64,000 bases of DNA from Escherichia coli (GTDB lineage: Bacteria; Pseudomonadota; Gammaproteobacteria; Enterobacterales; Enterobacteriaceae): assembly GCF_003334255.1 (NCBI RefSeq), contig NZ_QOWU01000024.1. The stretch is one strand, 5' to 3'. This document shows positions 41,526 through 44,621 of this stretch, in pieces. Each line of letters opens with the position of its first letter. Within the stretch, counting starts at the first letter, position 1. Below the pieces are notes generated by a model that was not told the DNA's origin, made no database searches, and was given only the letters and a program-made list of their open reading frames with translations. The position numbers and the translations under genes were made by a program.

Positions 41526-42584
41526 TCATGCGGGGGTCTTTTGACGAGCTGCCGCGTCCTGGCGGGAGTGCTCAAGCAGGTTCTGCAAATAATGCAGCGT
41601 GACTGCAGGGACCAGCGGCGCGATAGCCGTGAGATCGTTTTTCGCCAGCAGTTGACGTACCCGGGAAGCGGATATCGGCATCTCCTGGTAACGCAGCCGC
41701 TCAATTTCAACCAGTTCGATGGGCGGTGCGGAGATAGTCGGCGTTTCCAGCCAGTAGCGCATATCCTGGTTGTACTGGGCGGTAACGCGACAAAAGGGTT
41801 CAGTACCGACAAAGCGGTGAGTTACACCCAGCGCGGGAGCGAGGTACTGACGGAAAATCTTCAGATCAATTTCGGTGTAACAATGGTTAATGACGCTCTG
41901 TTCTTTAATGAAGTAGCAAGGGAACGTAGCGCGGGAGATGATGTATTCGGAGCCACGATGCACAGTCAGGCGTGGAATATCGGCGGTGCCTTTTAACACC
42001 AAATCCAGCCGGTCTTCATAGGGGAAGCGTGAAGAATCTTCTTTGACTAAAAACAGATGCAACCAGTCGCACTGTGCCGCAGCCTGTTGAATCAGATAAC
42101 GGTGACCATTCGTAAAGGGATTGGCGTTCATCACAATGCAGCCAATCTTGTTCCCTGGATGACGAAATTTTTTCAGCGATTCGGCATAGCGTTTCAGTCG
42201 CGTGGCGCTGTTTTCCATCAGCACCATCACGCCGGGTACGCTGGTCAGCGTGGAAAAACCGCACTGGCGGAACAGCGCCTCGTATTCGGTTTTGGTATAA
42301 ATAAACAGATGCGTGCTGTGCCGCTCATAGGCGAGGTTTATCAATTCAGTGGCTAATGTCAGCGCCAGTCCTTCACCGCGGACGGATTCACTGATAGCAA
42401 CGCATTTAATAATATTTCCGGCAATTCCACCGCACGCGATAAGCTTTTCATCGCGGGTTACGGTAATAAATACTTCGACTGTGGTGTCAACGCTCAAATC
42501 ATTTTCATGCAGGAATTGGGCGATTTCCGCCATTTTTTTATTTTCTGAACGTTTTACGCGGGTGAAAATATCATTGCCGAACAT
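41526..42584 (-). CDS. citC: [Citrate (pro-3S)-lyase] ligase
   Basis: Translation from MFGNDIFTRVKRSENKKMAEIAQF (352 aa); track ORF extends 29 codons upstream into the AT-rich control region. Confidence 0.9.
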   Translation of the reverse strand: MFGNDIFTRVKRSENKKMAEIAQFLHENDLSVDTTVEVFITVTRDEKLIACGGIAGNIIKCVAISESVRGEGLALTLATELINLAYERHSTHLFIYTKTEYEALFRQCGFSTLTSVPGVMVLMENSATRLKRYAESLKKFRHPGNKIGCIVMNANPFTNGHRYLIQQAAAQCDWLHLFLVKEDSSRFPYEDRLDLVLKGTADIPRLTVHRGSEYIISRATFPCYFIKEQSVINHCYTEIDLKIFRQYLAPALGVTHRFVGTEPFCRVTAQYNQDMRYWLETPTISAPPIELVEIERLRYQEMPISASRVRQLLAKNDLTAIAPLVPAVTLHYLQNLLEHSRQDAAARQKTPA

Positions 42585-42962
42585 AATAAATAGTATCCTG
42601 AAGGTGCATGTTGTTATCGATTTGCAACGAATGTTGTTCAATGTTGCAAACTGATAACCTTTTATTTTCACTTGGGAGAAAGGGGGTGATCGAGGTATAT
42701 CTTTTTCTCCTTTCGCTATACATCCTAAGGAGTATTTCGGCGTGAAATTTTGATTTATTTCACATAGAGTTAGTGGTTTTTTATTTATTTAATGATTTTA
42801 AGTTTTTTAATTAATGTAATTACGAAATGACTCGCAGGTTTAAGTGATTTAATTGATTTAATGAATAAAATTTGCCACGATCATAATTAATATCTATGTA
42901 TTTTGATTCAACATTTTAATTACATCCGTCAAAGAGGCTCGGGACAACCCGCAAGGAAAACA
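42585..42962. promoter_or_regulatory. Divergent citCDEFXGT / citAB control region (expected DpiA/CitB target region)
   Basis: AT-rich 378 bp between divergent operons; tandem direct repeat TGATTTAAT x2 at 42845-42862; inverted repeat GTGAAAT-N9-ATTTCAC at 42742-42764. Confidence 0.5.
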
Positions 42963-44621
42963 ATGTTGCAGCTTAACGAGAATAAACAGTTTGCATTTTT
43001 CCAAAGACTGGCATTTCCGCTGCGTATCTTTTTGCTGATTCTGGTGTTCTCAATATTTGTCATTGCAGCCCTGGCGCAATATTTTACGGCCAGTTTTGAG
43101 GACTATTTAACGCTTCATGTACGCGACATGGCAATGAATCAGGCGAAAATTATTGCCTCCAATGACAGTGTCATCTCTGCGGTGAAAACGCGTGACTACA
43201 AACGGCTGGCGACCATCGCTAACAAATTACAAAGAGATACCGATTTTGATTATGTGGTGATTGGGGACCGGCACTCGATCCGCCTTTACCATCCTAATCC
43301 GGAGAAAATTGGTTATCCTATGCAGTTCACCAAACAGGGCGCGCTGGAGAAAGGGGAGAGCTACTTCATTACCGGGAAAGGGTCAATGGGGATGGCGATG
43401 CGCGCCAAAACGCCAATCTTTGATGACGATGGAAAAGTCATCGGCGTGGTGTCGATTGGCTACCTGGTGAGTAAAATCGATAGCTGGCGGGCTGAGTTTT
43501 TATTACCGATGGCAGGTGTGTTTGTCGTGCTGTTAGGGATTCTGATGTTGCTGTCGTGGTTCCTGGCCGCGCATATCCGTCGGCAGATGATGGGCATGGA
43601 GCCAAAGCAAATCGCACGCGTGGTCCGTCAGCAAGAGGCGCTGTTTAGTTCGGTTTATGAAGGGCTGATTGCGGTGGATCCGCATGGTTACATTACCGCC
43701 ATCAATCGTAACGCAAGAAAGATGCTGGGGCTGAGTTCCCCCGGACGGCAATGGTTGGGTAAACCCATTGTTGAAGTGGTCAGGCCCGCCGATTTCTTTA
43801 CCGAACAGATTGATGAAAAACGTCAGGATGTGGTGGCGAACTTTAACGGTCTGAGCGTTATTGCCAACCGGGAAGCTATTCGTTCAGGTGATGATTTGCT
43901 GGGGGCCATTATCAGCTTTCGTAGTAAAGACGAAATTTCCACCCTCAATGCGCAACTGACGCAAATAAAACAATACGTTGAGAGCCTTCGTACATTGCGA
44001 CACGAGCATCTCAATTGGATGTCGACGCTCAATGGTCTGTTGCAGATGAAAGAGTATGATCGCGTGCTGGCGATGGTGCAGGGGGAGTCTCAGGCCCAGC
44101 AACAGCTTATTGACAGCCTGCGCGAGGCGTTTGCCGATCGCCAGGTGGCGGGGCTGCTTTTTGGTAAAGTGCAGCGCGCCCGGGAACTGGGGCTAAAAAT
44201 GATCATTGTCCCCGGTAGCCAGCTTTCGCAACTGCCGCCAGGACTGGATAGCACCGAGTTTGCAGCCATTGTGGGCAATTTACTTGATAACGCCTTCGAA
44301 GCCAGCCTGCGTAGCGATGAAGGAAACAAGATCGTTGAATTATTCCTCAGCGATGAAGGCGATGATGTGGTGATTGAAGTCGCCGATCAGGGCTGCGGCG
44401 TTCCAGAGTCTCTACGAGACAAAATATTTGAGCAGGGGGTCAGTACGCGTGCTGACGAGCCCGGTGAACATGGCATTGGGTTGTACTTGATTGCCAGCTA
44501 CGTAACGCGCTGCGGTGGTGTTATCACTCTCGAAGATAATGATCCCTGCGGTACCTTATTTTCAATCTATATTCCGAAAGTGAAACCTAATGACAGCTCC
44601 ATTAACCCTATTGATCGTTGA
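42963..44621 (+). CDS. citA: Citrate-sensing sensor histidine kinase
   Basis: Translation from MLQLNENKQFAFFQRLAFPLRIFLL (552 aa); two TM segments flanking a periplasmic domain, H-box LRHEHLN, ATPase G-boxes; also named dpiB. Confidence 0.93.
   Translation: MLQLNENKQFAFFQRLAFPLRIFLLILVFSIFVIAALAQYFTASFEDYLTLHVRDMAMNQAKIIASNDSVISAVKTRDYKRLATIANKLQRDTDFDYVVIGDRHSIRLYHPNPEKIGYPMQFTKQGALEKGESYFITGKGSMGMAMRAKTPIFDDDGKVIGVVSIGYLVSKIDSWRAEFLLPMAGVFVVLLGILMLLSWFLAAHIRRQMMGMEPKQIARVVRQQEALFSSVYEGLIAVDPHGYITAINRNARKMLGLSSPGRQWLGKPIVEVVRPADFFTEQIDEKRQDVVANFNGLSVIANREAIRSGDDLLGAIISFRSKDEISTLNAQLTQIKQYVESLRTLRHEHLNWMSTLNGLLQMKEYDRVLAMVQGESQAQQQLIDSLREAFADRQVAGLLFGKVQRARELGLKMIIVPGSQLSQLPPGLDSTEFAAIVGNLLDNAFEASLRSDEGNKIVELFLSDEGDDVVIEVADQGCGVPESLRDKIFEQGVSTRADEPGEHGIGLYLIASYVTRCGGVITLEDNDPCGTLFSIYIPKVKPNDSSINPIDR

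Follow-up and report, generated by a model that had tools for sequence, protein, structure and literature searches.

The control region between the divergent genes citC and dpiB of Escherichia coli appears to be built from two conserved 22-bp operators, called here B and C, which probably bind the response regulator DpiA/CitB, from one recognition site of CRP/FNR type, called here site A, and from a −10 element of the form TAnnAT that would serve the citC promoter. We give this reading a probability of about two in three. A preliminary description of the same region had pointed to two repeats, one tandem and one inverted, as candidate binding sites for CitB/DpiA or for global regulators. That regulator sites are present there is borne out by operators B and C and by the CRP/FNR-type site, but the repeats that had been picked are not themselves the functional units.

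The spacer between the two genes occupies positions 42585-42962 of the window, i.e., the whole stretch of 64,000 nucleotides that was analyzed, in which coordinates equal those of NC_000913.3 minus 609272. The window is DNA of E. coli K-12 type. The 378 bp of the spacer are identical in sequence to MG1655, and out of 5426 complete genomes of E. coli, 5421 contain a match to a 1-kb stretch around it. According to the RefSeq annotation, the start codon of citC lies at 42584-42582 on the minus strand and dpiB (citA) begins with the ATG from 42963 on the plus strand, in agreement with the limits proposed earlier for the citC–citA spacer; citDEFXGT follow downstream of citC, and dpiA plus dcuC follow downstream of dpiB. 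The AT-rich background that had also been noticed corresponds to 69% A+T over the entire spacer and to 77% over its core, 42741-42930. Previous work has already characterized it as the divergent promoter region that serves citCDEFXGT and dpiBA (citAB) (Yamamoto 2008; Scheu 2012; EcoCyc), and the two repeats noticed in it are an ordinary finding.

The comparative evidence derives from a scan for CitC in the representative genomes of GTDB, which yielded 80 loci. About 45 of these have a divergent dpiB homologue lying approximately 380-390 bp upstream of citC, and together they span Escherichia, Citrobacter, Salmonella, Hafnia, Buttiauxella, Atlantibacter, Edwardsiella, and Providencia; in L068, the sole locus obtained from Klebsiella, the gene upstream of citC encodes a transporter and runs in the same direction, so that the region is not divergent. 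Spacers were aligned from 22 close sequences, belonging to Escherichia, Citrobacter, Salmonella, and Intestinirhabdus, and from 23 more distant ones. The alignments contain conserved blocks with sharp edges and variable DNA in between, as is apparent from the identity to the window of the 16 close sequences that are not from Escherichia: 1.00 for site A (42749-42764), 0.93 for operator B (42793-42814), 0.50 for the spacer separating B from C (42815-42834), 0.74 for operator C (42835-42856), and 0.43 for the variable stretch at 42884-42907. A core of about 147 bp (42716-42862) is gapless in all 22 close sequences and in 19 of the 23 distant ones, whereas the length of the citC leader ranges from 87 to 137 nt across the aligned sequences.

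Operators B and C are paralogous direct repeats of 22 bp, both oriented along the plus strand, and their starts are exactly 42 bp apart, a distance equivalent to four helical turns, which would place them on the same face of the DNA. They lie between the putative promoters of citC and dpiB, with B as the proximal and C as the distal copy for citC, C being in turn the proximal copy for dpiB. Their K-12 sequences are TGATTTTAAGTTTTTTAATTAA for B and CAGGTTTAAGTGATTTAATTGA for C, while the family consensus, drawn from a table of 38 sequences ranging from Escherichia to Providencia, is TGGTTTTWAKTTNNTTAATTRA; the K-12 version of C fits this consensus only moderately, and is identical to B at 15 of 22 positions. 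Within each operator, TTwAk motifs recur in 9-bp phase, and in E. coli each operator consists of three TTTAA motifs spaced in this way. Such phased triplets occur twice in the 64 kb of the window, both times in the cit spacer, and they are found in none of 100 shuffles of the whole window and in none of 5000 shuffles of the local core having 77% A+T. When no mismatch is allowed, the consensus has matches in 33 of 86 loci, all situated upstream of citC and on one strand, and wherever two exact matches are present in these loci they are always 42 bp apart. Within the 64-kb window, a tolerance of up to three mismatches retrieves a single match, operator B, against 0.03 expected. Part of operator C and of the DNA that follows it, 42849-42861 (TTAATTGATTTAA), is invariant in the 22 sequences of Escherichia, Citrobacter, Salmonella, and Intestinirhabdus.

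This organization accounts for the tandem direct repeat that had been placed at 42845-42862 and is indeed exact at those coordinates (TGATTTAAT-TGATTTAAT, 42845-42853 and 42854-42862 on the plus strand), since it consists of the 3' portion of operator C and the next 6 nt. Among 2000 dinucleotide-preserving shuffles of the spacer, 14 (0.7%) contained an exact tandem unit of at least 9 nt, so that the repeat is moderately beyond chance. Both the tandem and the inverted repeat are invariant in ten E. coli genomes sampled to cover the identity range from 96.6 to 100%. The exact 9-mer duplication is thus found in all ten of these genomes, in the window and in four of five other Escherichia lineages; E. 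whittamii has at the same position the form TTGTTTAAT-TGATTTAAK, which is shared with most Citrobacter, Salmonella, and distant genera. Given the form present in most other genera, the exact duplication can be considered a substitution pattern within Escherichia. The second tandem unit, 42854-42862, has an identity of 0.92 to the window in the 16 close sequences outside Escherichia. Hence, what the tandem 9-mer shows is the periodicity inside operator C, and it has meaning only as a piece of that larger conserved operator.

Regarding the protein that binds these operators, indirect evidence comes from Citrobacter rodentium, in which the truncation of PcitC named DTR305 has lost the citrate response (PMC12405535). 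The forward primer of DTR305, CATCTAACTCTTTGTGAAATAAATCAAA, corresponds to the window from about 42776 down to 42749 and matches the Citrobacter sequence of L007 type; this truncation, a coarse one obtained in an organism other than E. coli, retains site A together with the core promoter while removing B, C, and the two conserved blocks D and E that lie closer to dpiB. The DpiA sites of EcoCyc were located by alignment and fall in the dpiB-proximal part that was deleted, according to the same work by Riglar and colleagues (PMC12405535). Considering the loss of response in DTR305 together with the lack of operator matches at dcuB and dctA, we take DpiA/CitB, with moderate confidence, to be the regulator that binds B and C. 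The origin of pSC101, which reportedly is another DpiA target, has no match to the operator consensus. The earlier statement that the regulator is not derivable from sequence alone largely holds, even if the comparison of genomes and the published truncation do point to candidates.

There is a second candidate among response regulators, for operator C and perhaps also B could be bound by DcuR, a paralogue of DpiA, either instead of DpiA or besides it, in a cascade leading from DcuSR to citAB. A DcuR site reportedly precedes citAB, and C is the operator copy nearer dpiB. Moreover, CitB and DcuR are members of one family (PMC4797297), and TTTAA and TGATT motifs are likewise abundant in the dctA region, which has its DcuR site at −105.5. 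However, no match to the operator is present upstream of either dcuB or dctA with up to five mismatches and ±1 variation in spacing, while all genera examined have the operator at one and the same place upstream of citC; furthermore, blocks D and E could also be the DcuR site. We therefore regard binding by DcuR as clearly the less likely possibility, albeit one to be taken seriously, and retain DpiA/CitB as the probable ligand of B and C.

The promoter that these operators would control can be placed from the candidate −10 hexamer of citC at 42722-42727 on the minus strand, which reads TAGGAT in Escherichia and for which other genera have TACGAT, TACTAT, TATTAT, TAATAT, or a similar hexamer; the form TAnnAT is present in 44 of the 45 aligned sequences (22/22 close and 22/23 distant), as would be expected of a −10 element kept by selection. 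From this hexamer, transcription of citC is predicted to start near 42715. Site A, the centre of which is fixed 29.5 bp upstream of the hexamer, would then lie at −41.5, the geometry of class II CRP/FNR sites, and operators B and C would be centred near −88.5 and −130.5, respectively. The scan for sigma-70 consensus elements (−35/−10), which was combined with a scan for terminators, returned no matches, and the promoter has no −35 element, a situation that fits dependence upon an activator. A PcitC-gfp fragment constructed by Fellner et al., starting at 42672 as deduced from the primers, is induced by citrate under anaerobiosis, which lends this placement of the promoter separate support. In the strain Ecol_AZ155 (L084), an IS1A element is inserted at the equivalent of approximately 42751, with duplication of TGAAATTT; it sits between the −10 region of citC and the CRP/FNR-type site, and consequently the core promoter is uncoupled there from all upstream regulatory sites.

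Expression of the cit genes has been reported to be repressed by nitrate and induced by citrate and by anaerobiosis (PMC12405535). A NarL-like element of 7-2-7 type, TACTCCT-TA-GGATGTA (42719-42734, minus strand), overlaps the −10 hexamer and would fit the reported repression by nitrate. It has two mismatches to the pattern TACYYMT-NN-AKRRGTA and belongs to a block that is 82% conserved; the 7-2-7 pattern is not above chance in the window (two matches versus 2.8 expected), and we consider the element as a lead only, made suggestive by its conservation and by its place over the −10.

Site A, at 42749-42764 on the minus strand, reads TGTGA-AATAAA-TCAAA in the sense of citC. Its half-sites are conserved and the six central bases vary across genera, which is the signature of a recognition site of CRP/FNR type and also the pattern found for CRP sites. 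There is one match per locus in 40 related loci, plus three copies of the E. coli region, and the start of operator B is always 50 bp away wherever B matches its consensus. Outside Escherichia the site is essentially invariant, with one substitution, in Intestinirhabdus, among the 16 sequences compared; across a wider range, TGTGA and TCAA are kept in nearly all genera examined, the distal half being degenerate in Providencia and Moellerella, and the complete GTGA-N6-TCAC is found in Pantoea and Erwinia. Compared with the CRP consensus TGTGA-N6-TCACA, the site agrees at 9 of 10 core positions and at 15 of 22 positions of the full consensus, whereas it agrees with the FNR consensus TTGAT-N4-ATCAA at 8 of 10 positions, the promoter-proximal half being perfect in E. 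coli. The distal half is GTGA, with the discriminating base of CRP type. These features point to binding of site A by a protein of the CRP/FNR family, as predicted from the sequence; CRP is favoured by TGTGA, a perfect half-site that is also conserved, and has a precedent in K. pneumoniae, while the ATCAA half is FNR-like. In published data, citC, dpiB, and citA are absent from the tables of FNR ChIP-seq peaks and predicted sites that were obtained in glucose minimal medium only (Myers 2013), and neither citC nor dpiB is named in the main text of the paper on CRP SELEX. Cross-regulation by cAMP-CRP has been asserted, without site data (PMC12405535).

In mechanistic terms, citrate would lead phosphorylated DpiA/CitB to bind operators B and C, and this regulator, together with a CRP/FNR-family protein positioned at −41.5, would activate a citC promoter that is devoid of a −35 element. 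One might go further and consider the mixture of half-sites, TGTGA of CRP type and ATCAA of FNR type, to be a deliberately hybrid site gating the DpiA-dependent promoter. Carbon status and anaerobiosis would then be integrated at one position, with CRP and FNR competing or alternating, and this could explain why cit requires both anaerobiosis and a co-substrate. We consider such a design improbable, and the same applies to the other refinement that may be proposed, namely that a change at 42795 weakens the binding of DpiA. At this position of operator B, DNA of K-12 type has A (TGATTTT), and G (TGGTTTT) is present in eight of the ten sampled E. coli genomes and in every other enterobacterial sequence examined; on this basis, the G-to-A change in the K-12 lineage may weaken DpiA binding in laboratory strains. 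Edwardsiella has a change at the adjacent base of its operator B, and a different substitution in the same operator, T42812C, occurs in two of the ten E. coli genomes.

Could the repeats of this region simply reflect its base composition? The A+T-rich elements would then have no sequence-specific partner, being curved DNA silenced by H-NS in which replication slippage produced the duplication. The core does have 77% A+T, the exact 9-mer duplication is lineage-specific, and, according to Table S11 of Myers 2013, the expression of citCDEFXGT depends on O2 solely in the Δhns/ΔstpA background, which suggests that H-NS silences the A+T-rich cit region. Yet the conservation is specific to individual bases, for every G in TGG and TTGAT is kept throughout, and identity to the window falls to 43-50% in the A+T-rich spacers close by; more than ten genera agree in both spacing and strand, and no composition-matched shuffle out of 5000 reproduced the phased TTTAA triplets. 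This explanation is consequently very unlikely.

The other repeat of the preliminary description was an inverted one, GTGAAAT and ATTTCAC separated by 9 nt and ending at 42764. Both arms are present, at 42742-42748 (plus strand) and 42757-42763, but the spacer measures 8 nt and the end is at 42763. A perfect 7-nt inverted repeat having a spacer of 0-20 nt appeared at least once in 1191 of the 2000 shuffles (60%), so that its presence is not beyond chance; the cit spacer holds three such repeats, compared with a mean of 1.25 in the shuffles. The right arm falls inside the 16-bp CRP/FNR-type site TTTGATTTATTTCACA, which is essentially invariant outside Escherichia, whereas the left arm has there an identity of 0.66; the two arms are not both conserved, as those of a palindromic operator would be. 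Even if the arms match perfectly over 7 nt and are invariant within E. coli, the idea that GTGAAAT-N8-ATTTCAC itself is the palindromic operator of a dimeric regulator is very improbable, given the 60% of shuffles with such a repeat, the unconserved left arm, and a conservation that begins exactly at 42749 and follows the 5-6-5 pattern of CRP/FNR sites without that arm. The inverted repeat arises by chance, one arm being an unconserved heptamer and the other belonging to one half of the CRP/FNR-type site.

Between the promoter and citC, the putative leader contains an imperfect inverted repeat with arms of 16 nt (42613-42628 and 42643-42658, plus strand), absent from the preliminary description, which is followed by CTTTTATTTT, with its run of T at 42660-42669. 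Only two of 500 shuffles had a comparable repeat, and the RNA fold has a z score of −3.1; the hairpin looks like an intrinsic terminator on the plus strand. RNAalifold applied to the citC leader found no structure conserved across genera, which indicates that the hairpin is specific to Escherichia, and Rfam gave nothing credible in 42300-43200. The antisense ORF nog1 (42349-42654, 101 aa, GTG start; Fellner 2015) ends at this hairpin. A longer version of citC, annotated in the style of EDL933 with a GTG at 42671 and 381 aa, was considered as well and found to be unsupported: the stretch 42585-42671 has indels of 1-2 nt between close genera. Combined with an identity to the window of only 59% over this stretch, the indels make the RefSeq ATG at 42584 the likely start of citC, in which case nog1 would be only partly embedded in citC. 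Two short motifs in the leader, TGAAAAnAAAAnGTTATCA (42652-42670, minus strand) and TGTTG (42633-42637), are conserved over a range of genera extending from Escherichia to Hafnia and Buttiauxella, within a leader that otherwise varies in sequence and length.

On the side of dpiB, the alignments reveal block D (AATyTGyAACGATC, 42869-42883), which contains GATC, and block E (AAACAwwTTnATTACAT, 42908-42925, plus strand). The end of the latter provides a candidate −10 for dpiB at 42920-42925 on the plus strand; most genera have TACATT there, and E. coli has TACATC. If this hexamer were the −10 element, transcription of dpiB would start near 42932, with operator C near −87 and operator B near −129, in what is approximately the mirror image of their positions on the citC side; such an arrangement could give autoregulation. 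A SELEX peak for the RpoS holoenzyme has been described in the cit spacer (PMC5493296). Binding of ArcA to block E was also considered, for its minus strand resembles the direct-repeat box of ArcA, TGTTA-N6-TGTTA, and is retained as a lead only; dpiB and citC are absent from the text and supplements of Park 2013, a ChIP study of ArcA.

What is gained from this analysis is a refined definition of the functional units of the region, namely a phased pair of 22-bp operators, a CRP/FNR-type site in class II position and a −10 element, rigidly conserved across Enterobacterales. The result has little importance beyond annotation and raises no new question, though it could help the builders of citrate biosensors and the re-annotation of the start and leader of citC.

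How does this organization compare with known systems? The CitA/CitB (DpiB/DpiA) system of E. coli reportedly controls both citCDEFXGT and citAB. It belongs to the very locus considered here, from which nothing is demonstrably different. The published DpiA sites lie in the dpiB-proximal part of the spacer (PMC12405535), and the comparison of B and C with them is by region rather than by footprint coordinates. With class II promoters dependent upon CRP or FNR, the citC promoter shares a 5-6-5 palindrome of half-sites centred 29.5 bp upstream of the candidate −10 and the lack of a −35 element, and with those promoters of this class that use an additional response regulator it shares upstream activator sites on the same face of the DNA. 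The difference lies in the half-sites of the cit site, which are a conserved mix, the distal TGTGA being of CRP type and the proximal (A)TCAA of FNR type or else a degenerate CRP half-site. The citS–citC region of Klebsiella pneumoniae is said to be controlled by CitB plus CRP. That region is likewise divergent and contains CRP sites as well as CitB targets rich in A+T (PMC2735749), and the likeness consists in combining a specific response regulator with a global regulator of the CRP family, a logic known from its description rather than from aligned sequences. The two systems diverge in the partner of citC, which is citS-oad-citAB in K. pneumoniae and dpiBA in E. coli.
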